Part shown: one piece after another, positions 2,546 to 53,539 of the stretch | Numbering within the stretch: position 1 is the first letter of the stretch | How the letters are laid out: every line of letters begins with the position of its first letter | Assembly (NCBI GenBank): GCA_965219995.1 | Contig: CBDCOX010000002.1 | Coordinates: 3,552,001-3,616,000 of the forward strand | Direction of reading: 5' to 3' | DNA from: Candidatus Latescibacterota bacterium | Lineage (GTDB): Bacteria; Latescibacterota; UBA2968; GCA-2709665 | DNA: 64,000 nt | Notes under the pieces: generated by a model | Databases searched by the model: none | What the model was told of the DNA's origin: nothing | The model's input: the letters and a program-made list of their open reading frames with translations, nothing else | Translations under genes and position numbers: made by a program

Positions 2546-5500
2546 ATGTCCAAACTTGACGCGGGAACGATTGTAGACGGACATTATGAGATCCTGGCAC
2601 CCGTTGGAAGCGGGGGTTTGGGTACCGTATACCGCGCGCGGGACGTTGCGGATGGTTCCACCGTGGCGTTGAAGATGCTGGATATTTCGGGAGACGAGGC
2701 ACAGCGGCGGTTCCTGAGAGAGTTCAACATCCTGTCCCGCATCCGCCATCCCAGAATCGTGCGTCCCCTCCGTTGGGGCGTGTATGAAGGGAAGCCGTAT
2801 TTCTCCATGGCGTTTATTTCCGGTCGGCCCTTGTCCGATCTGATTGCGGACGCGGGAGACCGCGACAGGCTGAGAACTACGTCGTTTCTTCAACTTGCGC
2901 GGCAAATTGGAGACGGACTGGCTCACATCCACGAACAGGGCTTGATACATCGGGACCTGAAGCCGTCCAACATTATGATCGCCGAAGCGGATGGCAATCT
3001 CGACGTAACAATCATGGATCTGGGTCTGGCTCGATTTCAGGATTCGCGGGAGCGTCGCCTGACGCCGCCGGGGGCGGCCACGGGAACCATGGAATATATG
3101 TCGCCCGAGCAGATCCGCGGCCGGTCGGTGGACCCGAGGTGCGACCTGTATTCGATGGGAATCATATTGTACGAGGTCCTGACGGGCGAACCGCCCTTTA
3201 CAGGCGGGAATCCGGCTTCGGTGATGCTTCGGCATCTGAGAGACCTGCCCAGGCCGCCCGATGTTCAGGGCATTCCGGACCGGATCCAGGGTGTGGTCAT
3301 GAAACTGCTGGAAAAGGAACCGGTTGACCGCTATAGCTCGGTGGGCAACCTGCTGCAGGAGTTGGCGGAAGTCGACCGGCCGGTTCCAGACGAGACCGGG
3401 ACCGCGCCTGTTTCCATATCGCCCGTGCCCCTTCTGGGGCCCCAGTTTCAGGGCCGGGAGCGCGAGATGAAGGCTCTCCGGGAAATCCTGGGGGATTCCG
3501 TGGAGGGGATGGGGCGGATGGTGCTGATAAGCGGCGAGGCCGGCATCGGGAAAACCCAGGTCCTGGAGGAGTTTCAGGCCGACGCCCGCGTTTACGGAAT
3601 GCGCGTATTGATGGGGCGTTGCTACGAGAGCGGCGGACGGGCCTATGGACCATTCCTGGAAGCGTTGACGGACCTGGCAGACAGGCCGGGCATTCAGGGT
3701 TCGGACCTTGAAGAAGCCGTTAAACGTGTAATGGCGCAAATTGATCGGGCGGTGGCCGGCGATCAGAGAGATCCATTTCCGGTCATTGAGATTCTTGCCG
3801 AATTTGTCGGCGATCTGAGCCGGGAAACCCCAACCCTTGTTTGCGTCGACGATATTCAATGGGCGGACGACCTGAGCTTGCGGTTCCTGGATTTTATGCG
3901 GCGGGATACGGATCCGTCGACCCTTGTTTTCGGCCTGACCTGCCGGAAAGAAGGTGAAGACCTGTTGCCCGAACGTATCGAGGCCGTGTTTCCCCACGGA
4001 GACGCGCCCGGGTTGGTCCATTTGCCGCTTGAACCGCTCAGTCTTGAAGAAACCACGAATCTGGCTGCCTCCGTACTCGGCGAACAGAGTGTGCCGGATG
4101 ACGAAGCCCGCAGGATTCGCGAGGAGACCGGCGGAAACCCTCTATTTGCCGTGGAACTGGTCCGCGGGGCCATCGAAAACGGTTCGATTCGCCGGGACCC
4201 TGCGGGCGGGTGGACGTGGCCGCGGTCCTCGGACTGGCCCATGCCCGCGGGCATCACACAGGCGATAGATTCGCGTCTCCGACGGTTACAATCTGATGAC
4301 CGCCGGGTGCTGGAGTACGCTTCGATTTTTCGAGGGGCGTTTTCGTTCGACCTGATTTCGGAAATATGGCGCGGCGATGACTTGCGGCTGCTTGAGGCCC
4401 TGGAGGGGCTTGTCCGCCTGGGCCTATTAAAAGATATGCAAGACCGGGACGGACGGTACCGGTTTTCGCATGGACTGATCCAACGGGCTGTCTACGACGG
4501 TATATCAGCAAACAGACGTACGCTGCTTCACCGGGAGGCAGGCAGGGCCCTTGAAACGCGGTCCGGGTCCGGCGGCTCGGAGACGCTGGACGAACTGGCC
4601 TACCACTTCTCGAGATCGAACGACCTGGAAAAAATGGCGCAGTACGTGACGGCATCCGGCAGGTTAGCGTTGCGGATGTGTGATTTCTCGCACGCTCTGG
4701 AGCTGTTTGAAGCGATTCTCGAGAAAGGCGCGTTCTCACCCGACGCGCCGGCCGGCGTTTCTCAAGGATCCCTGGCGCACCTGGATTTCCTCTGCGTCTA
4801 CGCCGAGGCGCTCTCCGGTTGTGACAGGTATAAGGACGCTCGGCGCGAATTGGATCACGCCCTGCGGTGGGTGTCCGCCGATACGCCGAGGCAGAGAGCA
4901 TACGCGTTGAGGATGATGGGAATAAACCACATCCATTTCGAGGATTATGTAAAGGCCGAATCCGTGTTTTCGGAGGCCTTGGGTCTCTTCCGAGAATTGG
5001 GCGACGAAGAGTCTGAAATGAGTGTTGTGGGGTTATTGTCCAATATCTACTTTAGGCTGAAGGATTTGGAAACGGCCGAGAGATTTTGTGAGTCAGCTGC
5101 TGAAAGATGCCGGGAATTGGGAGGGGACGTTAATGAGGCGCGTGCCTTGAATTATCTCGCGTTTGCGGCACAATTTACCTATCGGAATGAAAGAGCCAGG
5201 ACGCTCCTTGAGTCTTCACTGGATCTGATGGACAGGGCAGGGGATCGGACATATCGCCATGGCAGTCTTTTCCTGCTGGGACGTATAGAGATCCGACTGG
5301 GAAATTTCGATCGTGCGAAGGAGGTATTCCAGGAACATCGAGACTTCTGGGCCAGGCGAGGTTCGAAGTCTACGGAGGCCCTGGCACATAATCGATTGGG
5401 CTGGATCGCCCTGGAACAGGGAGACACCGCCAGTGCGGAAACGCATGCCCGATCTGCGGAACGCCTATTGTCGGATGGCGGGCGCATGGATCAGATGTAC

Positions 5501-7405
5501 CGGACGTATGGATTGCTGGCCGAGACGCTGGCGGAGACCGGCCGCGTTGAAGAGGCGCTTTCCTGGGCCGAACGGGCCGGGCCGGGCGTGGAGTACGGCG
5601 GAAATATTCGCGCCATTGCATGGACTGCGAAGGCAAAATCGCTTGCCGCGGCCGGCCGCCATGACGAAGTCGATTCCCTGTTCGATCATGTATCGGAAGC
5701 CCAGGGCTCGCCGGACGGTTTGGAAGAAATAAACCTGTTCGTTGTGGCGGGCGCGTACTATCTGGAGCGGGGGCGTCTTGCCGATGCACGGCGGTTCCTT
5801 GAAACCGCCCGCGAGGCTGCCAAACGGCTGAATTTGCGTTATTATGCCGGGAAGGCAGCGGATCTTCTGGATCGTGTTGCTGAGGAAGTTGAAATGACGT
5901 TGCCCGCAAAGGAGATGGCTTCCGCGCTTTCGGAAGAACACCTCCTGACGCTCTATCAGGCTTCCGAAGAGTTGACGTCGGTCCTGGAACTGAACGTGCT
6001 TCTGGATCGGATTCTGGACCGCCTGAGGAAGGTGAGCCGTGCCGAACGCGTGTTGATCGTCCTCAAGGATGAAGCTGCCGCTCACGTCGAGGTGGCGCGC
6101 AAGCACAATCTGCACGATGCAGCGACGCGGGAGATCAGCCGCGGGATCATCAAGTGGGCAATGGAGCGAAACGAGCCGATATTGAGTCTTGACGCCCGCG
6201 TCGATGAACGATTCAGACAACGAGCAAGTGTAACGGCGTACGGCATCCGATCGGTGCTTTGCGTTCCCCTGCGACACGCGGAGTCTGGTGTGATCGGCGC
6301 GATTTATATGGACCACCGAAAGCTGGAGGACATGTTCACCGAAAAAGACAGGGCGCTCTTGTCGGCATTCGGAAATCTGGTATCCATAGCCGTTGTCAAC
6401 GCCCGAATGTACTCACAGATCGGAGACCGGGCGCTCTTCTTCCAGAAGCAAATCGAGGGTCGCCACCGATTGGAAGAACTGGTGGGGCAGAGCCGGGCAA
6501 TGCAGGACGTGTTCAAACTGGTCGACGTCGCGGCGGAAAGCGACATGACGGTGCTGATTCAGGGTGAGACCGGAACGGGCAAGGAACTGGCCGCCCGGGC
6601 TATTCATGCCCGCAGCAAGCGAAAGGAACAGCCCTTTCTGTCGGCGAATTGCGCCGCGCTAACCCACGAACTGCTCCAGAGCGAACTGTTCGGTCACAAG
6701 AGGGGCGCATTTACCGGAGCCGTTTCGGACCGAAGAGGCCTGTTCCTCTCCGCGAACGGCGGCACGGTATTCCTGGACGAAATCGGGAATGCCTCGCCTC
6801 AGTTGCAATCGAGCCTGTTGCGGGTGCTCCAGAACGGCGAGATACAGCGGGTGGGCGAAACCGAGGTTCGGAACGTGGACGTTCGGGTGATTGCAGCTAC
6901 GAATCGCGACCTGGAAGCCGACGTACGTGAGGGTCGGTTTCGAGAGGATCTATATTATCGTCTGCGAGTCTTGCAGATTGACATGCCGCCCCTTCGTGAT
7001 CACATTGAAGATGTTCCATTGCTGTCGGAGCATATTCTTGAACGTGTGTGCGCGGACCAGGGCAAGTCCGTGCCGGGGTTTACCGTGGGGGCCATTCGGG
7101 TGCTGATGGACCATGGCTGGCCCGGAAACGTGCGAGAGTTGGAAAACGAGATTGGACGGGCCGTTGCCCTGGTCGAAGAAGAAAAAGAGATCTCTGCGGA
7201 TCTGTTTTCCGAGAAGATCGGCCTTCCCGAGGAACTGAGAGCCCGGGAACGCGGTTATTTCAAGGCCCGTTTGGACGCTGTGAAGAGACGGATGATCATT
7301 GACGCGCTCGATCAATGCGATGGTAATATCAGCCGGGCCGCCGATCGACTGGGGCTCAGCCGAAATGGCCTTCAGAAGATGATGACGCGATACGGTCTGC
7401 GGTGA
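2546..7405 (+). CDS. Ser/Thr kinase - AAA/STAND ATPase - TPR - GAF - sigma54-dependent activator (Fis-type HTH) fusion
   Basis: Kinase motifs [31 protein letters not shown]-loop GEAGIGKT with [14 protein letters not shown]-like helical repeats and a GAF ([10 protein letters not shown]). bEBP motifs [32 protein letters not shown]-terminal [14 protein letters not shown]. Confidence 0.93.
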
Positions 7406-7427
7406 AAAATCAGGCCTGAGTAACGAA

Positions 7428-7554: not shown

Positions 7555-7571
7555 TGTATACATTGTATACA
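7555..7571. promoter_or_regulatory. Second candidate UAS palindrome
   Basis: tgtatacattgtataca = TGTA-N9-TACA, the same geometry as the 7428 site, about 100 bp upstream of the -24 element. Confidence 0.4.
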
Positions 7572-7628: not shown

Positions 7629-7670
7629 TTAAGACGCTTGTGCATTCGCACGAGCGTCGTTTCTTTTTAT

Positions 7671-7687
7671 TCGGTACAATAATTGCA
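7671..7687 (+). promoter_or_regulatory. Sigma54 (-24/-12) promoter
   Basis: tcGGtacaataattGCa: GG at 7673-7674, exactly 10 nt, then GC at 7685-7686 in a TTGCA context. Lies in AT-rich DNA just downstream of a bEBP gene. Confidence 0.65.
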
Positions 7688-8089
7688 CTGTGAGGACATG
7701 CAACTCTTGCTGCTATGCATGAGATGAATGAAGCGACTGATCGCTCTGGCAATGCGGTCAGTTTCCCGACGAGAGAACTGGTGCCCACATCTTTCTTGCC
7801 CCTACAGCAATTCGCAAATCCAGATGGAGCCTGTCCAATCCAACGGTTCAATCGTTCAACCGAGAACCGCAAAGCGCCCGACCCGCACACGCACCCTTGA
7901 GTGCATGCTCTGCCGAATTCCGGATTTCCCGAACCTGAATTGCAGGGTCAGTGTCTTTCGGATTGGCAGGACACGTTCGAAATGTAGCGTAAAGTGACCC
8001 TACCCGTACGGACCGATATACTCGACCTCCCATCAAGTCGTTCGAGGATGCGCCTTATGTGACACCACGAAATACACACTAGTACTTAC

Positions 8090-8118
8090 TTGACAAAGAA
8101 AGCGAATTAATATATCTT
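8090..8118 (+). promoter_or_regulatory. Sigma70-type promoter overlapping the IS630 left IR
   Basis: TTGACA-N17-TATCTT. Confidence 0.6.
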
Positions 8119-8167
8119 GTGCTCATAGGGAATCGATCTCAGTTCAACTGTGGAGAGGAGACCGCCT

Positions 8168-9235
8168 ATGAGCCGCCCCGCCGTGTTGATCACGTTGAGC
8201 GACGAGGAAAAAGAGACGCTGTTGAGTTGGACACGTTCAGGCAAGACACAACATCGTTATGTGCTGCGCGCCCGGGTTGTTCTGTCAGCATCTCAGGGCG
8301 TTGCGAACCGGGACATCGCCAGGGACCTGGGAACGCGCGAGGCCACCGTGTGCAAGTGGCGCCGGCGCTTTCACGAGTCGGGTCTTTCCGGGTTGCAGGA
8401 CAAGGCGAGGTCGGGTAAGCCTGCCAAGTACGACCAGTCAAGCGAAAGGCGCATTTTGGAGGCCTTGGACGACGCCCCGCCCAAGGGCTATGGAAACTGG
8501 ACCGGTCCGTTGTTGGCCGACAAGCTGGGGATTTCTGTCCACTATGTCTGGCAGGTCTTGCGCAACCACGGCATCTCACTGGCCAGAAGGCGCAGCTGGT
8601 GTATCAGCACCGATCCCGAATTTGCCACCAAGGCCGCAGCCATCGTGGGGTTGTATCTGGAACCTCCCAAAAATGCGATTGTCTTGTGCGTCGACGAAAA
8701 GCCCGCGATCCAGGCGTTGGAAAGGGTACAGGGATGGCTCAAGCTGCCCAACGGCAAGGCCGTGACCGGCTTTAACCACGAATACAAGAGAAACGGCACC
8801 ACCACGTTATTCGCTGCATTGAACGTCGCCACCGGCCTCGTCAAGGCCGGGCGTTACAAAAGGCGCAAACGACGCCAGTTTCTGAGCTTTATGAACGAAC
8901 TTGTCGCCGAATACCCCGATCAGGAACTCCACATCATCCTCGACAACCTGAACACCCACAGGCCCAAGAACGACCGCTGGCTGCCACGCCATCCCAATGT
9001 CCACTTCTACTACACCCCTACCCACGCATCCTGGCTCAACCAGATCGAAATCTGGTTCAGCATCCTGTGGAAAAGCGCGCTCAAAGGCGGCTCCTTCACC
9101 TCGATTCGAGACTTGCGGACCGCCATCAATCACTTCATTGACGCCTACAACGAGAACGCACATCCCTTCGAGTGGAAGGCCACAAAAGTCCGACCCAAAG
9201 CCCTTGAAGATAAATTCGCTAATTTAACCAATTAA
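8168..9235 (+). CDS. IS630 family transposase
   Basis: N-terminal HTH; DDE motifs VLCVDEK, IILDNLNTH, ASWLNQIEIWF; YKRNGTTTLFAAL. RBS GAGGAG precedes ATG 8168; the stop lies in the right IR. Confidence 0.95.
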   Translation: MSRPAVLITLSDEEKETLLSWTRSGKTQHRYVLRARVVLSASQGVANRDIARDLGTREATVCKWRRRFHESGLSGLQDKARSGKPAKYDQSSERRILEALDDAPPKGYGNWTGPLLADKLGISVHYVWQVLRNHGISLARRRSWCISTDPEFATKAAAIVGLYLEPPKNAIVLCVDEKPAIQALERVQGWLKLPNGKAVTGFNHEYKRNGTTTLFAALNVATGLVKAGRYKRRKRRQFLSFMNELVAEYPDQELHIILDNLNTHRPKNDRWLPRHPNVHFYYTPTHASWLNQIEIWFSILWKSALKGGSFTSIRDLRTAINHFIDAYNENAHPFEWKATKVRPKALEDKFANLTN

Positions 9236-9444
9236 ATACTAGGCGAAGATAGGCGAATTTAGCTGCAAGCGCTCAAGATCCTTCGACACGCGGTTGGATC
9301 GCTGAGGTACTCGACAAAGCAGTCGTATGACAAATGGCCATTCCTCGGATAGACGATTCGGAAAAGATTGAGCGCCTGATACCGCAATGGTTTGACGAAA
9401 CCCGGCGCTATGGCACCTCGATACATCTTCGGAGGGGCAGGGTT

Positions 9445-11814
9445 ATGAGACATGTAGTGGCTTTCGTGTTGGTAGTACTGGCGACAAGCCAAGCACTCGC
9501 CTTGACGAAGCAGGCCCGAATAGATTCGCTCTATCGCAAGGCAATGACTCAGATCGGCCGTGTACCACCGAAGGTAAGCATCAACGAATTTGAGCAGGTC
9601 CTGAAGCTGGACTGGGAATTTGCACCCGCGCACTATCAGATCGCAAAACAGCACATGGAAATGAACACGCCGGTCGCGCGACAGAGCGCTCGCAACGCGC
9701 TGAACGAGGCCATACGGATTGATCCGGCGAACAACGAATACCAGCTGACAATGGGTGAGTTACTCAGCAAGCAGGGATTCACGTACAATGCGGAACGACG
9801 ATTTCAAAACGTGGCGAAGGTTTACACGGGTAATGCAGAAGGTGCATACTGGGCGGGATTCTTCGCGGTACAGGAGTATCTCGCGTTGATCGATAAGAAA
9901 GAATTCGCTACTTTCGACAAATATGGCCATGTTCACGTTTTCTACTGGAAGGCTTTCGCGACAAAAGCCTTGGAACGCGCGAGGAAATTCCTGAAACAGA
10001 GCATTGAAGCGGATCCGGAATTCCGCGGCGCCTACAACATGCTGGGACTCCTGCATGTCGAGACTGGAAAACCGGAAGCGTTGGTATTGCTGTTCAAGCG
10101 TTTTCTGAGACATTTTCCGGATGACAAGGATGCATTTATGTTCTGTGGTCTGGGTTATCAGCTGCTCGGTGAAATGGACGTAGGGTATACCTATTATCGG
10201 AGAGCCATTGAACAAATGACCGTCGAGGAGCGATCCTTGATGGAGTCGGTGGACATTATTGCGTCGAAAGAAGAAACTAGACGGATCGCGCTGGACGTTA
10301 ATAGCGGTCACAATGGCGGTGCGGTTTGGACAAATGACAGTGTAGAAGACTTCTGGCGCAAGCAGGATCCCCTGTTTCTGACGGAATTCAATGAACGCAA
10401 GATGGAACACTATGGGCGGGTCGCTTACGCTAATCTCAGGTTTTCCCGCCCCTTCAAAAGCATCGGGGGGTGGCAGACTGATCGAGGGAAAGCGTTCATC
10501 AAATTCGGACGATATATGGGACGAGATGTCTTTATCAACCGGATGGTTTGGAATTATGGGAAGTTTCGTATATGGTACGAGAATGGTGATGGTCTGGACG
10601 CCTGGCGTTTTGCGCGAGGATCGAATACGGGAAAGAGTGCGAGAGAGTCGACAAAGGACTACTGGGTGTGTGTGGGTAAGAGCGCAGTAAAGATCACAAG
10701 GATGCGAGATGATCTGGGCGACTTTTATTCTGGAAAGAGTCGACGGGAACGTCTGAGGGGAACGCGGCCACACGCGCGACAGGTGTTTCAAGATACACCC
10801 CAGCGATATCTCGACCCGTATCGCGAACTGAAATACCATATGCCGCGGCAAGTCGCGGCTTTTCAGGAGGATGACAGTATTCGCGTAGAGTTTGCCTACG
10901 CGATTCCGAAGTCGCGGGTGCAGTTCAACGAGCCTGAGAGCCTTCTGGACCTGGAGGACGGGGTGTTTCTGTTCGACGAGCGGTGGGACGAGGTCTACCG
11001 CAAGAAGATGGACGTCACCATGCAGTGGCCTGAATTCGACAACGCGGCTGAAACAAAGAGCGACAGTCTGCGGCGCAACCACATGGTGTCGTACCGGACG
11101 CTGCGGGTCGCCACGCGGAAGCACCGCATTGTTGTGGAGGTCCGGGATCGCGGTACGGGATCCATAGGGACCTTCCGCGAGTTACGGATGTTCGGTTCGC
11201 ACGATTCGTTGCTGGCGATGAGCGACCTGCTGCTGGCCTCCCGGATCCGGCCGAGAACCGCGTTCCCCGAGGGTCGCGACGATCTGCTTGTCACACCCAA
11301 CCCGCTTCACACCTTCGGCCGGTCCGAGCCCGTCTTCATCTATCTCGAGATCTACAATCTCAAGAAAGACAGATTCGGCCGAACCAAATACCGAATTTCC
11401 TATCGGCTGACCCGGCCCAACCGCGAAGAGATCCATCCCGAACGGTTCGCCGCATTGGACGCACCGGGCGCCGCCAGGGTGGAGGTTCAGACCATCATCG
11501 AGGAACCTGTAATTGACAGCGAAGACGACCTCTGGCGGGATGAGATTCAAGAATCCGTTAGGTATCGTGTGAAGTACATCCTCCCGGAACGAAACCAAAT
11601 CTCCGAGGAGATCGGGAATACGCCTCGTTCAATGGAAGGCACTGAGACGACTGTCACGGCGCGATACGAGGGAGATCGGACGGATGACTTCACCTTCCTG
11701 CAGATTGAATCGAACGATACTCCCGCCGGTTTCCACAAGCTGATCGTTACCGTGAAGGATCTCTACACGGGACAAATCGCGAAACGGCACGTCGTGTTCC
11801 GGGTTGTGGCTTGA
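9445..11814 (+). CDS. Secreted TPR + GWxTD domain protein (short type A)
   Basis: Signal peptide MRHVVAFVLVVLATSQALA after GGAGG; TPRs; FWRKQDP...EHYGRVAYANLRF...GWQTDRGKAFIKFG; C-terminal beta-rich domains (VFIYLEIYNL). Confidence 0.85.
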   Translation: MRHVVAFVLVVLATSQALALTKQARIDSLYRKAMTQIGRVPPKVSINEFEQVLKLDWEFAPAHYQIAKQHMEMNTPVARQSARNALNEAIRIDPANNEYQLTMGELLSKQGFTYNAERRFQNVAKVYTGNAEGAYWAGFFAVQEYLALIDKKEFATFDKYGHVHVFYWKAFATKALERARKFLKQSIEADPEFRGAYNMLGLLHVETGKPEALVLLFKRFLRHFPDDKDAFMFCGLGYQLLGEMDVGYTYYRRAIEQMTVEERSLMESVDIIASKEETRRIALDVNSGHNGGAVWTNDSVEDFWRKQDPLFLTEFNERKMEHYGRVAYANLRFSRPFKSIGGWQTDRGKAFIKFGRYMGRDVFINRMVWNYGKFRIWYENGDGLDAWRFARGSNTGKSARESTKDYWVCVGKSAVKITRMRDDLGDFYSGKSRRERLRGTRPHARQVFQDTPQRYLDPYRELKYHMPRQVAAFQEDDSIRVEFAYAIPKSRVQFNEPESLLDLEDGVFLFDERWDEVYRKKMDVTMQWPEFDNAAETKSDSLRRNHMVSYRTLRVATRKHRIVVEVRDRGTGSIGTFRELRMFGSHDSLLAMSDLLLASRIRPRTAFPEGRDDLLVTPNPLHTFGRSEPVFIYLEIYNLKKDRFGRTKYRISYRLTRPNREEIHPERFAALDAPGAARVEVQTIIEEPVIDSEDDLWRDEIQESVRYRVKYILPERNQISEEIGNTPRSMEGTETTVTARYEGDRTDDFTFLQIESNDTPAGFHKLIVTVKDLYTGQIAKRHVVFRVVA

Positions 11815-32272: not shown

Positions 32273-32285
32273 GAAGGGGAATGCG

Positions 32286-37500: not shown

Positions 37501-37905
37501 AACCGCAAGGACGAGGATAAATTCAACAAAGGCACACTGTGGGTCATTCCAATGCCAACGCGGACCTACAGGGTAGGACAGAATGTATTCGTCTACTACG
37601 AAATCTATAACCTGACGAAGGACGATTTCGGGCAGACGAACTACCAGGTATCCTACACCGTCACGAAGAAGGGCGGATTCAGCCCCCTGGGTATCATCTC
37701 CAGCCTTATAAGGTGGAAGAAGGGCAAGCGTGAAGAGTTGGAAGTGACGTACGAGATGGTGGGCGAGGATAACATGGAAGTCGAATACGTGGAACTCGAG
37801 CTGGAAAACCGCCCAGCGGGCAAGTATTTCCTGAACGTGACCGTCATCGATATGAACAGCGGTGAGTTGTCCCGGAAGCAGGCCAGTTTCATTCTCGCGC
37901 AGTAG
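34600..37905 (+). CDS. Large secreted TPR / GWxTD-family protein (long type C')
   Basis: Signal-like segment after ATG 34600/34621; FWADQDP...EHYRRV...PWDQRGEVYIRFGEPD. Paralog of 23132-26506. The longer ORF-track start runs through repeats. Confidence 0.85.
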   Translation: MRPRSQFMRAKHRALILFSTAAVFAFFPSRGLDAEVRQTAISVSSGGHTAWAIGLETGSSAITEIWVETRGSQPRHLGTFPGPPGRLEWVAHGERLRFQETALKVPLHTLTMLPDRTMPLVASGVWEISVPDGSIARSKTDFEAEPVTPPVVATRNAPRPSPAAKAVLWGVATAFNASALAYTTVHRWEFRSAVKRYRKASRAWAALPLRFKKYGLYEEPVLSYAEALAATARKAGARRGARWVCEDHLTVIGDALSAYEKAHESQRPSDLAALRNWIETHRLTPADSIVVKALFRSANDPEKGRQYSYTHGYRPEAEDGEAVVTSFFHDGYLVEAVRSSAGYRTLDRRVGKAQIDSLLYLGTELTPHEPLRAISTLEILAGVAQDYARGHSGLGFAYLEAEKLERAVKSFERAIECDHTLAEAYFGLGLTFRKWPRGNYDAIRYFQKALQYDRHHVEARFNIADIRYKLDEHDVRREVKKVLAIDPRYAPAYLLMGKWVEEFEKNYEKAALYYAKYMGLRPGDPEGRKRLGSIYLRTKDYGRILEVLEDYAIENPDDDQVLPILAQACMKLGAYDRAAAFFRDFLEGADAAEKGHYHDIRLVAPKETLAAFEQTPPEERWDFVKKFWADQDPDLTTAANERLLEHYRRVSFAMQNFSEGRQPWDQRGEVYIRFGEPDHRSTSKELNFQQSMAVQRVKERLSRTLYGAARPPRRGIGLRGASSTFVGPVYPVRSQGGRGPGGSYRPVTATYDGSMVPWETWTYVDVGSGIEITFTDEFSNGNYNYAPEPLDAGIPARRLAMFTRYSPRNIYRMAAAAQPNYFVRPKNTLPMEFYFNSADFRSERDFRTALEVYVGIPRHQGHYMIDDDRTEIMVDRTVALRNPATGAVYRSEDKVQFAAKGDVTAERSAFVPDLARLDVPPGHYRMEVKIKDNLSVQHGRYRQDIEIESYERHSLQVSDLELAWRISNRKDEDKFNKGTLWVIPMPTRTYRVGQNVFVYYEIYNLTKDDFGQTNYQVSYTVTKKGGFSPLGIISSLIRWKKGKREELEVTYEMVGEDNMEVEYVELELENRPAGKYFLNVTVIDMNSGELSRKQASFILAQ

Positions 37906-38062: not shown

Positions 38063-41000
38063 ATGAACTGGATGAAAAACCTGCTCATCGGCGCGGCCGG
38101 CGTTCTGGCAATCGCGGGCATTTCGGAATCCTCGAGTGACAAAATTCTCACCGCCAGGTCGGCAGGTGGCGAGTATCTGGCCTATGCTGTCCGGCGGGGC
38201 GACGGGTCGATTTCGATATCGGAAATATGGGTTGCCTCGCAACACGACAGCAGCGCCCGGAAGATCGCGGCTTATCCGGGAGAACCCGGCAGTCTCAGTT
38301 TCGATCCGGACGGAAGCGCGCTGATCTATCTCGAGCGAAGCCTGCGGCGGGAAGCGTGGGGGTCGTATTTCTACGGCGGGCAGTCGCTGCCGATTACGAG
38401 AAACAGAATCCGGAAGTTGAGCCTGGACGGCAGGAGAGAGGAAACCTGGCCGCTCCCGGACGACTTTCAACCCCTCGAATTCGCGCCTTCTCCCGATGGA
38501 CGGTCGTTGGCGATTGTCGGGTATCGAGGGAATCCGTTCGAGCGTGTCGGCCACGGCCTTTGGGTCGCGGACGATCGCGGCGGCGTCAGGCCCCTGTTCG
38601 AGGGAAACGCCGCGGGCCCGTTAAACTGGTCGCCTGACGGGACATCGGTACTCTTCCGTATGGCGGATGGCTCGGGATCGTTCCGTGCTGACGTCGCCTC
38701 CGGGGAGAACTTTCGATCTGATCCGCGCAATGATATACCAAAAAGAGTATATCTAGATCGGGAGGCCGTGTTCCGGCGGAATCCAGACGCGGTTCGCGGC
38801 AGGGACGACACGATCGGTTCCGCCCTGGGGGTGATCGGCACCGGCCTGGATCTGTTCATTCGCGGCAGAAATGCGCTCCACAGAGGAAACGAAGCCAGCG
38901 CGGTAAAACTGTTCCAGCAGGCCAGGGGTGCGTTCAAGAAGCTCTTTGACCGGGCGCCGAAGTACGGGATGTCCAGGAAGGGCTGGGAAAGGTATATCGA
39001 AGTCTGCGAAGACTGGATCGATGCAGCCGGCAACACGGCGCACAGACGCAACTGCCAGGAGCGCCTGACGGGGATGCTCCGGTTGATCGTGGAGTTCGAG
39101 CATGACCGGAACGGGGACGAACCGGCGGACCTTGATGAATTGCATCAGTGGGCGACGCGGAGAATCGTTGAAGAGACGCCGGCCGGAAAGGAACTGGATG
39201 ACAGGAAGGCGATCCTTGGCGTGCTGTTCTCCTGCCCGTCAAACCGGGACTACGCATTTCTCAGCGATTACCTGTATAAGCATCCAGGGTTGCCCGGCGC
39301 GCCGGTCCTGGCCTGTTTCTGGCACCGCGGCGAACAGGTCGCCGGCATTGCCGGACGCGATGGCGGCCGCACGGAAATTTCGCGCATTCCCGCAGCGACG
39401 GTCGACAGCCTGGCATCCAGCGGGCGCCGCGGCATGGACGCGAATAAGCTGGACCGGGCGCGCCTGATCTACCGGAACGTCGCGCGTCAACGGCCGAAAG
39501 AACCGGACGCATATATCCACCTGGGTCACATTCTCCTTGAATTGAAACGATTCGAGGAATCGAAAGACGCGTTTCACCGCGCCATGACCCTGGGAAGCAA
39601 AGCGCGTGCCCACCACGGCCTTGGAATGCTCTACGCCACGTGGCCGATGCAGCGCCATTTCGCAATTCACCACTTTACAGAGGCGCTGGTCAGGGACCGG
39701 GACTTTGTGGACGCTCGATATCGGATGGCCAGAGTCCGTTATGAGATGAAACAGCGCGACGCGGAGCTGGAGCTGAAGCGGGTCCTGAAAATGGACCCCG
39801 GCCACGCGGGCGCCTATCTTATGATCGCGGACTACTATTTGAATCTATCGTGGGAATTCGAAAAGGCCGTTGTCTGGTATACGAAATACCTCGCGCTTCG
39901 TCCGGAAGACGCCGACGCGCAGCGAAGGCTGGGGGTTGCATACCTGAAGGTCAAAGAGTATTCGAAGATTATGGACCACCTGCTGGACTTCGTGAGAAAG
40001 TACCCGGAAGCCATCGAATTGATGCCCATTGTCGCCATTTCCGCCATGGAACAGGAAGAGCCGGCAATGGCAATGGCGTTCTTCGAAGACTACATTGACA
40101 AACTTGCGCCGGATGAAAGACGGTTCTATGAAGATATATCGCTGGTTGCCTCCGGCGAGGAACTCAGGACGTGCAACGAGGCACTGGGCGCCGACCGTGA
40201 GACCTGTTTGCAGCGATTCTGGAATGGAAAGGACCCGGACCTGTCCACGGCCGTGAACGAGCGGCTGCTGGAACACTACCGAAGGGTCTGGCACGCGCTG
40301 ACGGAATTCTCGGAAGGAAGGCAGCCGTGGGACGCCAGGGGTGACGTCTATGTCCGATTCGGAGAACCCGATCACCGGGCCAGGTCGGACGAACCCAACT
40401 TCAAGCAGAGCCTGAAAGTGCAGCGGGTCAAGGAGCGGCTCGCGTTCAATATCTACAAGGGCGACGTCCGCGCGCACACGTTCGTCGGCCCGGTATATCC
40501 CGTTCGCAGCCTGAAACAACTGGAAGGCGCGTGGTACGAACTGAAAGAATTCACAATAGAGAACGCAGATCCATCGGCGTGTGAGATTGCCGGCCTGACG
40601 AACGAAGGTGCGGAGGCGGCCGACGCCGACCTCTATCAAGATGGAGGAAGCGAGTCTTTTTTCGTCAATGACGATTCCTTGAAGATCGGCATTCTGTCGC
40701 TCGACGAACGCCTGGGCTTCGGCGACTATCACCCCGTTACTTCCGACGAAGACCGGAGCACGGTCCCCTGGGAAACGTGGATCTATACCGATGCCGGCGG
40801 CGGTATTGAAATCACCTTTACTGATGAAATCGGATCCGGAAACTACGATTACGCGCCTGTTCCGCCGAACCAGGGGGATATTTCGATCGGCGAAACCGCC
40901 GCCCTGAGCAGGCACGCGCCCCATTCCGTATACCGGCGTGCGGCGCGGGCAACGCCCGATTTCTATGCGCCCGGTCATGAGACACCGCCTCTCGACTTCC

Positions 41001-41800
41001 ACTACGCTCTGGCCGACTTCAGCGGCGATGACGACAATAGCCTTCTCGAAATCTACTACGGCGTCCCCATTCTGCCGGCCCATTACCACGCGGAAGAGGA
41101 CGTCACGCGGCAGGTCCTGACCCACCATGCGGCGCTGATTTCCTCCTCGCTGGACACGGTCTACAGGCAGTCGGACGAGATGGTCTACGAAGCCGTCGGA
41201 AACCGGGCCGGGGAGGGTCTCATGGCGCCGGACGTCCTGAAGCTGGATCTGCCGCCCGGCGACTACCGGCTGGAGGTCAAGTCGCAGGACCGCCTGAGAG
41301 GACGAATGGGCATCTATCAACAGCGAGTGGTCGTGGAACCCTACGGAGAAGATCGACTGCAGGTCAGCGATCTCGAACTGGCCTGGCGGGTTGGCGCGGA
41401 AGAGGCGAACGGAAAGTTTGCCAAAGGAGGTCTGACCGTCGTCCCGATGCCTTCCCGGACTTACAGGAAGGGCCAGAGCGTGTTCGTATACTACGAGATC
41501 TACAACCTGGAGAAAGACGAATTCGGACAGACCGGTTACAACGTCTCCTACACCATCACCTCGAAAGATCGCGACGGGGAGGCGGGAAACATCTCGCGCC
41601 TGTTCCGTTGGAGAGCCGGCAGACGCGAGGAGCTGGCCGTTGCGTACGAACAGATCGGCACGGACGCTCGCGAGAACGAATACGTCGAACTCGCGCTGGA
41701 TGAACAGGTACCAGGGCGATATTCGCTCAAAGTATCGATTAACGACAAAAACAGCGGCGAATCAGCGGAGAAAGAGGCGACGTTCGTCATCTCGCGATAG
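38063..41800 (+). CDS. Large secreted propeller-like / TPR / GWxTD-family protein (long type B')
   Basis: Signal peptide; PSPDG/WSPDG repeats; PWDARGDVYVRFGEPD. Paralog of 18085-21864. Confidence 0.87.
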   Translation: MNWMKNLLIGAAGVLAIAGISESSSDKILTARSAGGEYLAYAVRRGDGSISISEIWVASQHDSSARKIAAYPGEPGSLSFDPDGSALIYLERSLRREAWGSYFYGGQSLPITRNRIRKLSLDGRREETWPLPDDFQPLEFAPSPDGRSLAIVGYRGNPFERVGHGLWVADDRGGVRPLFEGNAAGPLNWSPDGTSVLFRMADGSGSFRADVASGENFRSDPRNDIPKRVYLDREAVFRRNPDAVRGRDDTIGSALGVIGTGLDLFIRGRNALHRGNEASAVKLFQQARGAFKKLFDRAPKYGMSRKGWERYIEVCEDWIDAAGNTAHRRNCQERLTGMLRLIVEFEHDRNGDEPADLDELHQWATRRIVEETPAGKELDDRKAILGVLFSCPSNRDYAFLSDYLYKHPGLPGAPVLACFWHRGEQVAGIAGRDGGRTEISRIPAATVDSLASSGRRGMDANKLDRARLIYRNVARQRPKEPDAYIHLGHILLELKRFEESKDAFHRAMTLGSKARAHHGLGMLYATWPMQRHFAIHHFTEALVRDRDFVDARYRMARVRYEMKQRDAELELKRVLKMDPGHAGAYLMIADYYLNLSWEFEKAVVWYTKYLALRPEDADAQRRLGVAYLKVKEYSKIMDHLLDFVRKYPEAIELMPIVAISAMEQEEPAMAMAFFEDYIDKLAPDERRFYEDISLVASGEELRTCNEALGADRETCLQRFWNGKDPDLSTAVNERLLEHYRRVWHALTEFSEGRQPWDARGDVYVRFGEPDHRARSDEPNFKQSLKVQRVKERLAFNIYKGDVRAHTFVGPVYPVRSLKQLEGAWYELKEFTIENADPSACEIAGLTNEGAEAADADLYQDGGSESFFVNDDSLKIGILSLDERLGFGDYHPVTSDEDRSTVPWETWIYTDAGGGIEITFTDEIGSGNYDYAPVPPNQGDISIGETAALSRHAPHSVYRRAARATPDFYAPGHETPPLDFHYALADFSGDDDNSLLEIYYGVPILPAHYHAEEDVTRQVLTHHAALISSSLDTVYRQSDEMVYEAVGNRAGEGLMAPDVLKLDLPPGDYRLEVKSQDRLRGRMGIYQQRVVVEPYGEDRLQVSDLELAWRVGAEEANGKFAKGGLTVVPMPSRTYRKGQSVFVYYEIYNLEKDEFGQTGYNVSYTITSKDRDGEAGNISRLFRWRAGRREELAVAYEQIGTDARENEYVELALDEQVPGRYSLKVSINDKNSGESAEKEATFVISR

Positions 41801-42052: not shown

Positions 42053-43135
42053 ATGTCCGGAAAAACAGGTTCCGCGCTGGTTTTTATTTCGCTCTTGACG
42101 GGCTGCGGCAATCCCGTGCCCACGTCCCCGGAGGCGACAAGCGATCTGCAGGGGTTTGAAGTCGCGGGAACGATGACGGAGAGGCGGTTCTGGCACGCGG
42201 CGGTCCTCCTGCAGGACGGCAAGGTGCTCATCACGGGCGGCGCCGCAACGGACAGTCCGGGTAATGTGCCTTCGTCGCTGTTTCGCTCCAGCACGGAAAT
42301 ATTCGATCCCGTAACGGGCACTTCGAGCAGAAGGGGCGACATGTCCCGGGCTCGCGCACTCGACATGGGAATCCTGCTGCCGGACGGACGTGTCCTGATC
42401 GCAGGCGCTGCTCAGGCCCCTCCGGAAATCTACAATCCGCAAACCGGGCGAATCACACCCGAGCCGTATGAGCCCGCCTTCGCGATCATCTCGTCGATGA
42501 CGCTGCTGACCAATGGGAAGATCCTGACCTATACCTCGCTGGGCGTCGCCACATTCGATCCCGACACCGGGGGGTTCGTGGCGCTGCCGGGTACGGTCCG
42601 CATTCGAAGAGGCCACACGGCGACCCGGCTGCGGGATGGGCGCGTACTCATCGCCGGCGGCAGTAATACCTCGGGTATGGTGAATGAATGCGAGATCTAC
42701 GATCCGTCGTCCAATACGCTTACGCCCACAGGCGACTTGAGATACGAACGGCGAGAACACAGCGCGATTCTCCTGGGGGACGGCAGCGTGTTGGTCATTG
42801 GCGGGAACACCGACGACGAGGGATCTGAAGTGTCGGTTACGGCCGCCGAGCGGTACGATCCTGCGACAGGGATGTTTTCATCGGAAGGGGATCCGGGACT
42901 CGAGCTGATTCACGCCGCTACGTTACTGCGATCGGGAGACGTGTTCATCATTGGAGATAGCGGCGAGGTCATTCTCTACGATCCCGCTACCGGTGCGTTC
43001 GGCCCGACCGGAGACAGCATAGGCGAGAATCGCGCGTTTTATACCACAACGCTGCTTCCCGACGGCCGCGTGCTGATTGCCGGTGGATTGAAGGACCTCG
43101 AGGCGACGGATCAGGTTCTGATCTACAACCCCTAG
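42053..43135 (+). CDS. Kelch-like beta-propeller lipoprotein 3
   Basis: Lipobox LTGC; Kelch-type repeats; resembles lipoprotein 1. Confidence 0.87.
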   Translation: MSGKTGSALVFISLLTGCGNPVPTSPEATSDLQGFEVAGTMTERRFWHAAVLLQDGKVLITGGAATDSPGNVPSSLFRSSTEIFDPVTGTSSRRGDMSRARALDMGILLPDGRVLIAGAAQAPPEIYNPQTGRITPEPYEPAFAIISSMTLLTNGKILTYTSLGVATFDPDTGGFVALPGTVRIRRGHTATRLRDGRVLIAGGSNTSGMVNECEIYDPSSNTLTPTGDLRYERREHSAILLGDGSVLVIGGNTDDEGSEVSVTAAERYDPATGMFSSEGDPGLELIHAATLLRSGDVFIIGDSGEVILYDPATGAFGPTGDSIGENRAFYTTTLLPDGRVLIAGGLKDLEATDQVLIYNP

Positions 43136-43818: not shown

Positions 43819-45378
43819 ATGTTGCGTCTCTGTCTCTGCATTTTTTTTTACGTTGCCTTCGCGTGGATAGAAGACTCTGCCGCATCTGAAAGGAAACCCC
43901 CGATCGTCCCGTTCGAGGGTCCTGTGAGTACCGACTGGTACGCGGCTTTTGTAGATTGGGATCAAGCGTACGGGGACAATTATCTGAACGGCCGCGACGG
44001 GGGATCGTTAGCCTGGGGTCCTTCGGCCTACGTGCAGAGGATGTATCTGAACCTCTATCGGACGTTTGACGATAAGGTCTGGCTCGATAAACTGGTAAAA
44101 CAGATCGACCGCATTCTGACGGCCCGCTCGGACGTGCCGCCGTATGAAGGGTACGATTCAAGGTACGTGGACGGTTACAGGGGTTGGGGACAGAACCGCT
44201 ACCGCCAGTACGAGCCCGAATATACCGAATGGCTTTCTGACGACGGGTTGATTATCAGCCCCATCCTGGCATTCGTGGAACTCGTCTGGGGCGATCCGTA
44301 CCTCCACACGGCCTATAAGGCCAAAGCGGATGACTACCTCCGCGCTGTGGAAGCGGACGTGATTGCGAAATGGTACGCCAACTGGGCGCCGGATCCCGGG
44401 TGGACGGAAGAGGACAACAGCCGCTACCGCGAAGACGCGGGGTACCACGTGTACGAATGGTCCGGATGGCAACGCCAGCCGCTGAATATGTACCTTTCGT
44501 TTACGGACGCGCTGATAACGCTCCGTCGACTTTCAGAATCGCCTTTTTACAAACCTTACAAGGAGGCCTTCGTACCGTTCTACGCTGAACAGAGCGAGCA
44601 GATGATGCGGTACTTTCGCCGTCAACTCTCGTACGATGCGGAAGCGGATGCCTATGCATGGAAATACGGTCCCGAGAGCCACTGGCCCGACTTGATGGAG
44701 GACGTCGGGCATGCCTTTATCGACATCCAGGCGGCGCTTCAGGGGGCACAGAGCGGGCTGAGTTTCGCCCGGCGAGATCTTGAGAGGATGGCCAATACGT
44801 TCGTCCACTATGTCTGGAACGGGAGCCTCGAGGAGCCGGCATTCAGGTACTACATCGGCGGCCCGCCGGATAAGCTCGACGCGGAACGGGGCTTCAGGGG
44901 GTGGGGCTTTCTCTACCTGGCAGGATACGACTACCGGATCTGGGAATCGATGGCCGCGTACTTCGAAGAGAAGGTTTCAATGCAGGGCGCACCGTCGCAT
45001 ATTGCGGCAACGGCCGCGATGTTTGCCATATCCATGCAGGCGCACGACCGATGGGCGCCCGGCGCTCCGCTGCACGTCGAAGTTATTCGCAGCGGACAGG
45101 ACGCGCGGATTTCGTGGCGTCGTCCGGAAACCGATGCCGACGGCACCGCGCTTACCGGGCTTAAAGGATACATCGTGCACCGGGCATCCGCGCCGCAGGG
45201 GCCCTTCGACGCGCTGAACGAGGACCCCCTGGCCGCCACGCACTATGTGGATCGCGGCGCGGGATCCGGACCCTTTTGCTTTCGGATCACCGCCGTCGAT
45301 TACCGGCGACCCCCGAATGAGGGTCCCCCGTCCGCGACCGTGACGACGTCGAACCGTCTTCCTTGTCCAGGGCCCTGA
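43819..45378 (+). CDS. Secreted aromatic-rich helical protein with C-terminal fibronectin type III domain
   Basis: Signal peptide; W/Y-rich predicted helical core; C-terminal PGAP...ISW...GYIVHR...YVD...RITAVD...NEGPPS FN3 pattern. Confidence 0.7.
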   Translation: MLRLCLCIFFYVAFAWIEDSAASERKPPIVPFEGPVSTDWYAAFVDWDQAYGDNYLNGRDGGSLAWGPSAYVQRMYLNLYRTFDDKVWLDKLVKQIDRILTARSDVPPYEGYDSRYVDGYRGWGQNRYRQYEPEYTEWLSDDGLIISPILAFVELVWGDPYLHTAYKAKADDYLRAVEADVIAKWYANWAPDPGWTEEDNSRYREDAGYHVYEWSGWQRQPLNMYLSFTDALITLRRLSESPFYKPYKEAFVPFYAEQSEQMMRYFRRQLSYDAEADAYAWKYGPESHWPDLMEDVGHAFIDIQAALQGAQSGLSFARRDLERMANTFVHYVWNGSLEEPAFRYYIGGPPDKLDAERGFRGWGFLYLAGYDYRIWESMAAYFEEKVSMQGAPSHIAATAAMFAISMQAHDRWAPGAPLHVEVIRSGQDARISWRRPETDADGTALTGLKGYIVHRASAPQGPFDALNEDPLAATHYVDRGAGSGPFCFRITAVDYRRPPNEGPPSATVTTSNRLPCPGP

Positions 45379-45637: not shown

Positions 45638-46294
45638 ATGGAAGGGCGGGTTACATCGGTGTCAGAAGTGGTTCGCAGCACCGTGCCGGATGAGAATTTC
45701 CAGACCAAATCGGATGAGCATTCCTCAGATTATGGCGTGTCCCGGTCCTTGACCGCGCTGCGTTGTTCTCACGAAGTCACGCAGGCCGAACTTGCGGAAC
45801 GGGCGGGTTGCACGCAGAGCAAAATCTCGAGAATTGAGAACAGCCCGAATGATCGGCTGAAATTGGAAGACCTGGCGATGTACGCACGGGCTTTCAACCT
45901 GCGAGTCTCCATTGGCTTCGAGCAGAAATTGCCCGCGGCGGACGTCATCGGAAGCCTGGCGCGCCAGATCCGGAACAGCCTCGACGACGTGGCTGAGAAG
46001 GCACAGAACGAAGGGGCGGCCGAGCGGGGCGCCGAACGGTCTTATGAAGAATTCCTGTTCAACATGCTCGATCTGTTTATGGACAAGCTGGAGGCGCTCC
46101 GGTCGCGCCGCAACGGATCCGCGGAATCAGGGGTGGCGACGAGGGCGGAAAACGGAAGACCGGAGGATCCCGCGGGCAAGAGCGAAGCGCTGACCCGTGG
46201 GCGACGGGAGAACGGGTTTCCGGGATTCAGAATATCCACGCCAATCGACATCAGCCAGGAGAACGGCAGGGCCGAATCCCAACCCGAGAAATGA
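45638..46294 (+). CDS. XRE-family helix-turn-helix protein
   Basis: LTALRCSHEVTQAELAERAGCTQSKISRIEN. Confidence 0.8.
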   Translation: MEGRVTSVSEVVRSTVPDENFQTKSDEHSSDYGVSRSLTALRCSHEVTQAELAERAGCTQSKISRIENSPNDRLKLEDLAMYARAFNLRVSIGFEQKLPAADVIGSLARQIRNSLDDVAEKAQNEGAAERGAERSYEEFLFNMLDLFMDKLEALRSRRNGSAESGVATRAENGRPEDPAGKSEALTRGRRENGFPGFRISTPIDISQENGRAESQPEK

Positions 46295-52969: not shown

Positions 52970-53002
52970 GCGCACCCTTACTCAACTGAAAGGTACTGCC
53001 AT

Positions 53003-53539
53003 ATGAAGCTGAGAGTCGGATGGAAGTCCTGGGTGTTTTTGGGCGTCGCAGTGGTCCTGGCGGGCGCCGCGCTGGGTCAGATTCTCGTCGAGGAGCCGGA
53101 ACCGAAGAACGCGCTGCCCGTGGGCCCGGCCGCGTCCGACTTCACGCTGGATGGTCTGGACGGATCGGTCGTCCGGCTGTCCGATAATGACGGACGCGTC
53201 GTCCTGATCAATTTCTGGGCGACGTGGTGCATGCCGTGCCTGTACGAATTGCCGCATATCCAGACGTTGTACGACCGGTACCGCGAAAAGGGCCTGACCG
53301 TACTTGCCGTCAGCACGGACTTCGACCGGGCGCGCGTGGGTCCGTTCATTCAGGAATACGGCTACACCTTCCCGGTCCTGTTCGCCGATCCGGGCATCCA
53401 GGCCGACTACGCCGTCCGCAGCATTCCAACCACCTTTCTGGTTGACAGAAAGGGCCGCCTCAGGTTCATGCAAACGGGCTACGGGCCCGATACCGAAACG
53501 GAACTGGAATGGGCCCTCGCACAGCTATTGGGACGGTAG
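53003..53539 (+). CDS. TlpA/ResA-like thiol-disulfide oxidoreductase
   Basis: N-terminal anchor; INFWATWCMPC; SIPTTFLVDRKG. Confidence 0.92.
   Translation: MKLRVGWKSWVFLGVAVVLAGAALGQILVEEPEPKNALPVGPAASDFTLDGLDGSVVRLSDNDGRVVLINFWATWCMPCLYELPHIQTLYDRYREKGLTVLAVSTDFDRARVGPFIQEYGYTFPVLFADPGIQADYAVRSIPTTFLVDRKGRLRFMQTGYGPDTETELEWALAQLLGR

Follow-up and report, generated by a model that had tools for sequence, protein, structure and literature searches.

The closest described counterparts of the locus treated here belong to several separate systems. The SusC/SusD polysaccharide utilization loci (PULs) of Bacteroidota are clusters of regulated genes for surface and binding lipoproteins, and cellulosome-like systems join cohesins to dockerins. 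Catalytic proteins of the FGE fold (PF03781) have a pair of cysteines near the C-terminus; PvdO, PorK/GldK and TvpA are non-catalytic proteins of the same fold. NifA- and NorR-type activators combine a GAF domain with a sigma-54 AAA+ domain and HTH_8. No paper on the GWxTD domain (TIGR04514) or its accessions was found in the literature searched. The present text describes a block of genes at positions 9445-53539 of a window of 64,000 nucleotides from Candidatus Latescibacterota bacterium (contig CBDCOX010000002.1, positions 3,552,001 to 3,616,000 of the forward strand, assembly GCA_965219995.1), in which seven TPR-GWxTD proteins (GW1-GW7), eight Kelch lipoproteins (KEL1-KEL8) and five FGE-fold proteins (FGE1-FGE5) are encoded downstream of a regulator gene and a sigma-54-type promoter element. 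Positions without a prefix refer to the window and those with the prefix C2 to the genome.

Conservation, regulation and layout of the block

The block is a real and conserved locus, and it is a genus-specific envelope gene island that is probably co-regulated. When the open reading frames (ORFs) in the block regions of congeners were labelled with the window proteins, a contiguous order was found in G006, G008 and G009: (solute-binding protein gene), regulator gene, GWxTD genes, two to four FGE-fold genes, GW2-KEL1, GW5-KEL2, GW6, GW7-KEL3, the gene of the exported protein X519, a helix-turn-helix (HTH) gene, an array of four to six Kelch genes and a TlpA-like gene. X519 is conserved in the cluster, the HTH gene is kept in G006, G008, G009, G012, G013 and G014, and the TlpA-like gene closes the array in G006, G008, G009 and G013. 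Copy number differs between species, with two to five FGE-fold genes and four to six Kelch genes in the tandem array; G012 has a shorter block and no regulator gene in the 52 kb fetched. A Kelch lipoprotein query found 3-12 relatives per genome in all 14 congeners, and one or two weaker relatives in three of four other genera of the family. At three Kelch loci outside the genus a full GWxTD neighbour was found at none, and PF03781-like genes were nearby at one. The co-localisation of the three families, proposed in the initial annotation, thus stands for related genomes of the same genus and is not supported outside it (no Kelch or PF03781 partner at ten sister-family loci, no full GWxTD neighbour at the three Kelch loci).

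The regulator (2546..7405, + strand) is a protein of 1619 aa with Ser/Thr kinase, AAA_16 (STAND-like), TPR, GAF, sigma-54 AAA+ and HTH_8 parts. Its sigma-54 AAA+ domain matches PF00158 at 240.5 bits and its DNA-binding HTH matches PF02954 at 41 bits; rpoN is present in the genome (TIGR02395, 428.8 bits, cut-off 277). The stretch after the regulator gene was aligned with four congeners (G006, G008, G009 and G014; mean column identity 58%). A -24/-12 sigma-54-type promoter element, CGGTAC-N5-TTGCA, lies at 7672..7687 (+ strand) with two mismatches to the consensus, the sole intergenic site with GG plus GC and 9 of 11 specified positions. It aligns with TGGTACGAAGATTGCA in the four congeners, and GG and GC are invariant in all five species. 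Taken as a bare pattern, the -24/-12 consensus is no more frequent in the window than chance predicts, with 14 matches at two mismatches or fewer and 22.6 expected. About 100 bp upstream of the element lies a perfect palindrome, TGTATACA-NN-GTATACA (7555..7571), a candidate enhancer (upstream activating sequence) site that is kept in all five aligned species and occurs once in the window (0.26 expected); the four congeners have a second palindrome of the same kind further upstream. A terminator-like hairpin with a T run (7633..7658, + strand) is conserved within the same alignment between the regulator stop and the promoter. Pattern scans for sigma-70 promoters and terminators remained at chance level. 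From the alignment, a predicted conserved sigma-54 promoter with enhancer-like sites, directed into the block, is well supported, and the earlier suggestion of a sigma-54 link is supported by the conserved element, the palindrome and rpoN.

An IS630-family insertion sequence (about 8079..9242, + strand; transposase ORF 8150-9235, NF033545, 254.6 bits) separates the promoter from the first GWxTD gene and has three further genomic copies at 96% and one partial copy. G006, G008, G009 and G014 are without IS630 here, and their first GWxTD gene follows within about 500-650 bp. As the four congeners lack it, the insertion may have cut the first genes off from the promoter in this strain.

Most congeners have full-length regulator orthologs (65-79% identity), often 5-40 kb from Kelch genes. 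Outside the genus, homologs of 42-51% identity are followed by other genes (radical-SAM/SPASM, small activator, helicase, RND efflux), and a GWxTD gene adjoins the homolog in two of about ten loci. In the sister family a radical-SAM/SPASM gene, in one case with a PqqD-like part, comes after the homologs (L043-L048, L052; about 44% identity), and these loci often continue with a small sigma-54 activator and a UvrD-type helicase; they look like a different regulon under the same sensor architecture.

According to the ORF listing and to Pfam and NCBIfam profile scans of the window, the block belongs to an uninterrupted + strand run (323-53539) of genes for an SBP_bac_5 solute-binding protein, the regulator, the IS630 transposase, seven TPR-GWxTD, five PF03781 and eight Kelch proteins, X519, an XRE-type HTH protein and a TlpA/ResA-like protein. 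The same scans confirm the family counts and coordinates given in the initial annotation, together with its kinase-STAND regulator of the bacterial enhancer-binding type upstream and its TlpA-like protein at the end; the IS630 element, X519 and the XRE-type HTH gene were absent from its gene list. As had been stated, almost every product has a signal peptide or a lipobox at its N-terminus, the signal peptides being assigned by eye from the N-termini only. Pfam and NCBIfam scans of 27 proteins found no C-terminal sorting domain of type IX secretion, for which no dedicated search was made. Within 9445-53539 the same profiles detected neither a barrel nor a PorV-like or SusD-like gene (Plug, TonB_dep_Rec and CarboxypepD_reg without match).

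The run begins with the solute-binding protein gene (323..2215, + strand; PF00496, 211 bits), which adjoins the regulator gene in G008, G009 and G014 too, and ends with that of the TlpA/ResA-like thiol-disulfide oxidoreductase (53003..53539, + strand). Past 53539 there are unrelated genes on both strands (oxidoreductases, RecJ, RraA-like). The XRE-type HTH gene (45638..46294, + strand; PF01381) stands ahead of the Kelch tandem array. X519 (43819..45378, + strand; 519 aa) is exported, has no Pfam match, and carries a C-terminal FN3 domain (residues 418-499) recognized with a profile against the PDB. Its family is small, with 32 proteins, two of which have CBM_4_9 and one of which, at 75% identity, is from a genome labelled Gemmatimonadota. 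The gap between GW6 and GW7 is 157 bp in the window; in G008 it holds a gene for a 656-aa type I phosphodiesterase/nucleotide pyrophosphatase (L022:7421-9391), and G012, G013 and G014 are alike by size.

The GWxTD, Kelch and FGE-fold proteins

The GWxTD proteins are encoded on the + strand in short and long forms. The short forms are GW1 (9445..11814, ORF from 9334; TIGR04514, 52.4 bits), GW4 (26952..29492) and GW5 (29840..32272); the long forms are GW2 (18127..21864, ORF from 18037), GW3 (23114..26506), GW6 (34621..37905 with the likely start, ORF from 34279) and GW7 (38063..41800). All seven match TIGR04514 at 45.0-61.7 bits (cut-off 28), and one of the seven reaches the own cut-off of the Pfam family PF20094 (26.9 bits). 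In an alignment of 68 sequences the motif has the consensus GWxTDRGK, with G367 and W368 at least 90% conserved and W329, P334, E342, R350, G373 and G380 invariant. The long forms have about 450 extra residues, within which GW7 has an N-terminal PD40 repeat match (23.5 bits, cut-off 20.9) and GW2 has weak propeller-type matches ahead of its TPR and GWxTD parts; the N-terminal part of GW7 gave nothing informative in the Atlas (best score 0.77). The long forms are predicted to carry a propeller-like N-terminal part.

A structural model of GW5, built with 68 relatives, has a pLDDT of 86.4 and a pTM of 0.81. It consists of a TPR superhelix (residues 10-311), an alpha/beta part with the GWxTD motif (323-455) and two Ig-like beta-sandwiches (457-577 and 580-810). 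The whole model gave TPR matches only in Foldseek, and a sequence search of the PDB likewise gave TPR proteins only. Residues 320-810 folded alone gave generic beta-sandwich matches only, with Z up to 9.7 (Foldseek, VIA-align), to Ig-like domains of GH2 enzymes, macroglobulin domains, transglutaminase barrels and RbmA; these matches barely cover the GWxTD core (model residues 1-135).

The GWxTD family is not confined to the block. Of the 26 TIGR04514 matches in the genome, 7 fall in the window, and each of the 31 searched genomes of the order has 8-41 copies. In a sample of the phylum the domain is found in 60 of 151 genomes, including all genomes of the two families of the order and both genomes of a further family; the largest family sampled has it in none of 64. 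A search with GW5 gave 205 representative clusters of relatives at E <= 1e-30.

The neighbourhoods of the 18 GWxTD genes of the genome outside the window were surveyed. Three loci (C2:1842894-1855630, C2:2011262-2020880 and C2:2442386-2451880) have, in that gene order, a CarboxypepD_reg/Plug barrel, a protein of 800-850 aa of no recognized kind, a PorV-like protein of about 330 aa and a GWxTD protein. At four genome loci a DUF6785/6784 membrane protein is close to GWxTD. Places of DUF6785/DUF6784 proteins are C2:1861411, 2004910, 2438274, 4083904 and 740027 and the sister-family loci L094, L095 and L097; such a protein with an ABC ATPase also follows a distant Kelch paralog. Two further loci join GWxTD to PF03781 and propeller genes: C2:1997138-2003532 has a long GWxTD form, an FGE-fold protein and an NHL propeller, and C2:3970822-3977956 is an operon of FGE, FGE, TPR, FG-GAP/ASPIC propeller and GWxTD genes with stops and starts overlapping throughout. 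Genome-wide, PF03781 has 13 matches at seven loci, three of which are within 5 kb of a GWxTD gene, a zone that makes up 4.5% of the genome. Ten long-form GWxTD loci of the sister family have the barrel module in four or five cases (L089-L093) and DUF6785/6784 with a DegT aminotransferase in three or four.

A maximum-likelihood tree was built from every full-length GWxTD protein in the genome (25 in all), and in it the seven window copies fall into at least four well-supported groups, every one of which holds copies from other loci. GW2 and GW7 group with the FGE/NHL-adjacent copy, GW3 and GW6 with a barrel-module copy, GW1 and GW5 with C2:5019392, and GW4 with two others. The window label takes five changes on the tree, and 97 of 500 shuffles do as well; the window copies form one group in none of 200 bootstrap trees. 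Identity among them is 23-51%. The interleaving of at least four old subfamilies shows that the GWxTD set of the window is not a burst of local duplication.

The Kelch lipoproteins, all on the + strand, are KEL1 (21903..23006, ORF from 21672), KEL2 (32265..33374, or from a Met at 32286), KEL3 (42053..43135, ORF from 41918) and the tandem array KEL4-KEL8 (46394-47497, 47616-48737, 49120-50301, 50435-51547 and 51707-52969). All eight match Kelch_1/4/6 above cut-offs and have an L-x-x-C-G lipobox-like N-terminus, the cysteine of which (C25) is kept without exception in the 38 aligned relatives. Identity is 37-71% among all the Kelch proteins of the window and 58-71% within KEL4-KEL8. Against the PDB they gave generic six-blade Kelch matches only. 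A NanM-like sialic-acid mutarotase was considered and rejected: one weak Pfam match was obtained (KEL6, E 7.8e-4), and NanM had no place among the best 60 PDB matches. The sole close Kelch paralog outside the block (C2:3047480-3055870) is flanked by two large proteins with C-terminal Redoxin and by an ABC-2 membrane protein. A Kelch protein beside a thioredoxin-fold protein thus recurs (the TlpA-like protein at 53003-53539 and the C2 paralog), and the mature Kelch proteins are almost cysteine-free.

A Kelch gene lies closely downstream of three of the seven GWxTD genes, giving the pairs GW2-KEL1, GW5-KEL2 and GW7-KEL3. The Met of KEL1 is 39 nt past the GW2 stop, and the KEL2 frame overlaps the GW5 stop by 8 nt. 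The spacing of these two pairs is 11-51 nt in most species and 11-22 nt in G006 and G009. GW2 and GW7 are sisters in the tree, and KEL1 and KEL3 are the most alike among KEL1-KEL3 (50%); this likeness fits a pair that may have been duplicated as a unit, three pairs being a weak test.

The FGE-fold genes lie between GW1 and GW2 on the + strand (FGE1-FGE5: 11864-12913, 13328-14359, 14489-15520, 15649-16677 and 16926-17972; PF03781, 124-135 bits), and their products are 66-77% identical. All five proteins have a signal peptide followed by a nearly invariant duplicated calcium-loop module of the form D-x-D-x-N-G-x-V-D-F. The best solved relative is PvdO (5hha, E 6e-21), and TvpA (2y3c, E 5.7e-12) is among the relatives. 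FGE2-FGE5 have one cysteine per protein and FGE1 has two, the only conserved one being in an ACRAGTT motif; with a single cysteine, the catalytic pair is impossible in FGE2-FGE5.

The label "dockerin" that had been given to the N-terminal module is kept only as a resemblance, since the module misses the curated thresholds (NF041540, 21-23.5 bits, cut-off 29) and none of the 38 genome matches to PF00404 at E <= 0.01 is one of the five genes. It is nevertheless no isolated feature: a profile made from the five genes picked up this module in a further 64 ORFs of the genome, mostly C-terminal and in several cases PF00404-positive. Two genome matches to cohesin (PF00963) exceed the cut-off, C2:3130598 (a frame of 1711 aa) and C2:2367381, and none is in the window. 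The dockerin-like modules and the two cohesins may form a non-cellulosomal cohesin-dockerin network.

Whole-gene dN/dS is 0.14-0.55 in 82 ortholog pairs, with Kelch genes (0.18-0.55) somewhat above the regulator, solute-binding protein and FGE-fold genes (0.14-0.23). In an alignment of 15 FGE-fold sequences, pN/pS is 0.02-0.17 in the dockerin-like module. The signal peptide, one loop region and the last 60 residues reach 0.5-0.76, and no part of the alignment has a value above 1, with pS near saturation. No match to RVT_1 (PF00078) was found in the genome, which is 98.6% complete. A constant scaffold with variable loops, as first described, is therefore seen qualitatively only, in the FGE-fold proteins, and the idea of a diversification mechanism or of positive selection finds no support in the dN/dS values or in the search for RVT_1. 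The FGE-fold proteins resemble stable binding modules that are non-catalytic and have variable loops, rather than a hypervariable repertoire.

Interpretation and alternative explanations

The reading favoured here, tentatively, is that of a genus-specific island with inherited gene order, which would encode a sigma-54-switched set of GWxTD adaptors with a battery of Kelch and FGE-fold proteins for ligand capture. A signal sensed by the kinase-STAND-GAF activator would lead sigma-54 to turn on at least the promoter-proximal genes. The GWxTD proteins, putative periplasmic or outer-membrane adaptors, seem to accompany TonB-dependent barrel modules elsewhere in the genome and in the sister family; in this genus at least four old GWxTD subfamilies would have been united with lipid-anchored Kelch propellers and non-catalytic FGE-fold proteins. 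The probable partner of each GWxTD protein is the product of the next binding-protein gene downstream (KEL1 for GW2, KEL2 for GW5, KEL3 for GW7), and the pairs together would be ligand-capture complexes at the outer membrane, with host-matrix or environmental glycans or proteins as the likeliest ligands. A wider claim is improbable as yet: GWxTD proteins would be a new kind of periplasmic adaptor, by which binding proteins are kept at the outer membrane and which serves TonB-dependent barrel modules in most lineages. In this animal-associated genus seven of them at one locus would have been reused to display exchangeable beta-propeller lipoproteins and lectin-fold proteins, as a sigma-54-inducible, barrel-less surface-receptor battery of many specificities.

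The island reading is supported by the conserved promoter region, the gene order shared within the genus, the interleaved GWxTD subfamilies, the tight GWxTD-Kelch spacing and the two further loci with FGE-fold and propeller genes. The proximity of PF03781 to GWxTD also counts for it, with a binomial P of 0.003 in a test chosen post hoc. Contigs from three RNA-library runs of two studies (marine and coral metagenome; 176-805 nt, 90-100% likeness) fall on GW6, GW7, KEL4, KEL5, KEL6, KEL7, KEL8 and TlpA, three of them on KEL5 without difference; they are compatible with transcription in nature, DNA carry-over being possible and no levels being given, and the uncovered parts of 33540-53539 are uninformative in this comparison. 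Several observations weigh against the island reading. A single sigma-54-like element was detected in 44 kb, and more than one transcription unit is suggested by several gaps that measure 250-1250 bp and by the XRE regulator inside the block. The block is in two distant pieces in G013 and G014, one of them with no regulator gene nearby. The Kelch query had no hit in any of the 12 sister-family genomes, and a Kelch or PF03781 partner was seen at none of the ten long-form GWxTD loci of that family; all the positive linkage evidence comes from one genus, so that shared ancestry alone could explain it. Divergence is also uneven along the block: dS to G006/G009 is 0.06-0.3 for KEL1, GW4, GW6 and KEL5-KEL7, about 0.8-1.0 for the regulator, GW2, GW5, GW7 and KEL2, and about 0.8 in the flanks, a mosaic that suggests interspecies recombination or gene conversion. 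The long gaps consist of dispersed repeats of about 90-190 bp, two cores of which have 231 and 54 places in the genome, mostly intergenic. In the window the repeats lie at 33375-34620 (the gap after KEL2, with repB copies at 33756-33946 and 34183-34367), 41838-42008, 43146-43415, 48802-48883, 51566-51752 and 60615-60848. RNA-library contigs join repeat copies, for example 33881 to 48997.

Much of this is what would be expected of a paralog-expansion hot spot, in which copies of the three families arose and were rearranged amid repeats, the outcome was passed on as it stood within the genus, and the genes or pairs act alone. This explanation is rather unlikely, although it is the rival that survives best. 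The repeats in the gaps, the mosaic dS, the splitting tolerated in G013 and G014, the copy numbers that vary between species and a three-family association not found beyond the genus all speak for it, as do the 26 GWxTD copies of the genome with their varied partners and the Kelch and FGE arrays, which are plain tandem duplicates (58-77% identity). It fits poorly with at least four old GWxTD subfamilies that are interleaved with Kelch genes and do not form separate arrays, with the tight and conserved GWxTD-Kelch junctions and the conserved sigma-54 promoter into the block, with the PF03781 and propeller genes beside GWxTD at two more loci, and with purifying selection on all genes.

The block could instead be an accessory, PUL-like part of a TonB-dependent uptake locus that serves the barrel 13 kb upstream or others, the solute-binding protein moving the product onward; this is improbable. 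An 810-aa CarboxypepD_reg/Plug barrel gene with a DUF4249 gene (C2:3546395-3549687) does precede the solute-binding protein and regulator genes on the same strand, 13 kb ahead of the first GWxTD gene, and is kept there in G009 and G014; the SBP_bac_5 gene adjoins the regulator. The order of barrel, protein of about 800 aa, PorV-like protein and GWxTD at three genome loci and the barrels in four or five of ten sister-family loci point the same way. Further support comes from the Atlas lead of X519 to GH76/GH88 barrels (score 0.84), from the two X519 homologs with CBM_4_9 and from the phosphodiesterase-family gene between GW6 and GW7 in G008, a gene that is missing in the window. However, 9445-53539 has no barrel, PorV-like or SusD-like gene, and a search of the G008 flank did not find the upstream barrel. 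The Atlas lead is below the trust level of the tool, and profile scans of the window proteins found no glycoside hydrolase family at threshold.

The source bacterium is probably marine and sponge-associated. For 46394-53539, 60-69% of the sampled words occurred in runs of two sponge-metagenome studies and one marine metagenome study, a count that leaves out the best-matching runs as the possible source and in which the habitat labels are run metadata. A host-interaction repertoire, with Kelch and TPR proteins as eukaryote-like repeats for adhering to or manipulating sponge or coral cells, would suit this habitat and the confinement of the Kelch expansion to the genus. Repeat proteins including TPR and other eukaryote-like repeats are enriched in sponge-associated genomes, Gemmatimonadota being among the lineages, according to the passages of PMC8163846 consulted, in which Kelch has no occurrence. 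It is nonetheless quite improbable: the Kelch proteins have lipid anchors and the GWxTD proteins a periplasmic appearance, no signal for secretion towards a host was recognized, and nothing points to surface exposure.

An immune-like or defensive set of hypervariable binders, built on a C-type lectin/FGE and Kelch scaffold under a STAND sensor, is close to refuted, for although the FGE fold is the scaffold of retroelement-diversified proteins (with TvpA as a relative), the regulator has a STAND-like AAA_16 module and the C-terminal loops of the FGE-fold proteins are the most variable, pN/pS in FGE windows is at most 0.76, whole-gene dN/dS is that of constrained genes, orthologs are one-to-one across species, and retroelement diversification is rejected for want of a PF00078 match in the genome.

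With its three tight GWxTD-Kelch pairs, conserved sigma-54 promoter and elaborate sensor-activator, the locus is a compact test bed for a domain that is widespread, with its 205 representative clusters and 8-41 copies per genome in the order, yet without a paper in the searched literature. If the pairs bind, they would give the first partner rule for GWxTD outside the TonB-barrel context and a link to surface building in a sponge- or coral-associated lineage; if they fail to bind, the block would be an ordinary duplication hot spot.

Comparison with known systems

The regulator shares with NifA- and NorR-type GAF activators, to which its NCBIfam matches are below the cut-offs, the GAF domain, the sigma-54 AAA+ domain, HTH_8 and a -24/-12 target with an upstream palindrome, and it differs in adding an N-terminal Ser/Thr kinase, a STAND-like AAA_16 module and TPRs. 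The FGE-fold proteins resemble PvdO, PorK/GldK and TvpA in having the PF03781 fold while both catalytic cysteines are wanting; in contrast to these, they occur in no pyoverdine, type IX secretion or retroelement context and form a five-gene array with an N-terminal dockerin-like module. This shared, duplicated calcium-loop module recalls the cohesin-dockerin pairs of cellulosome-like systems, whereas here the modules are under the curated thresholds, no cohesin is in the window and no enzymes are attached. The SusC/SusD PULs of Bacteroidota are likewise clustered and regulated, with surface and binding lipoproteins and a TPR-rich partner, but SusC, SusD and hydrolase families are undetected in the block and its regulator is of a different type. 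The nearest counterparts are the modules of GWxTD with a TonB barrel and a PorV-like protein in this genome and in the sister family, which are not in print as far as the literature was searched. They share with the block the GWxTD family, the TPR-GWxTD architecture and the export of all products; the block differs in being without a barrel and a PorV-like protein, in its Kelch and FGE-fold partners and in having seven GWxTD proteins together. The best reading of the block is a variant of the GWxTD envelope modules, confined to this genus, in which Kelch and FGE-fold proteins replace the TonB-dependent barrel.

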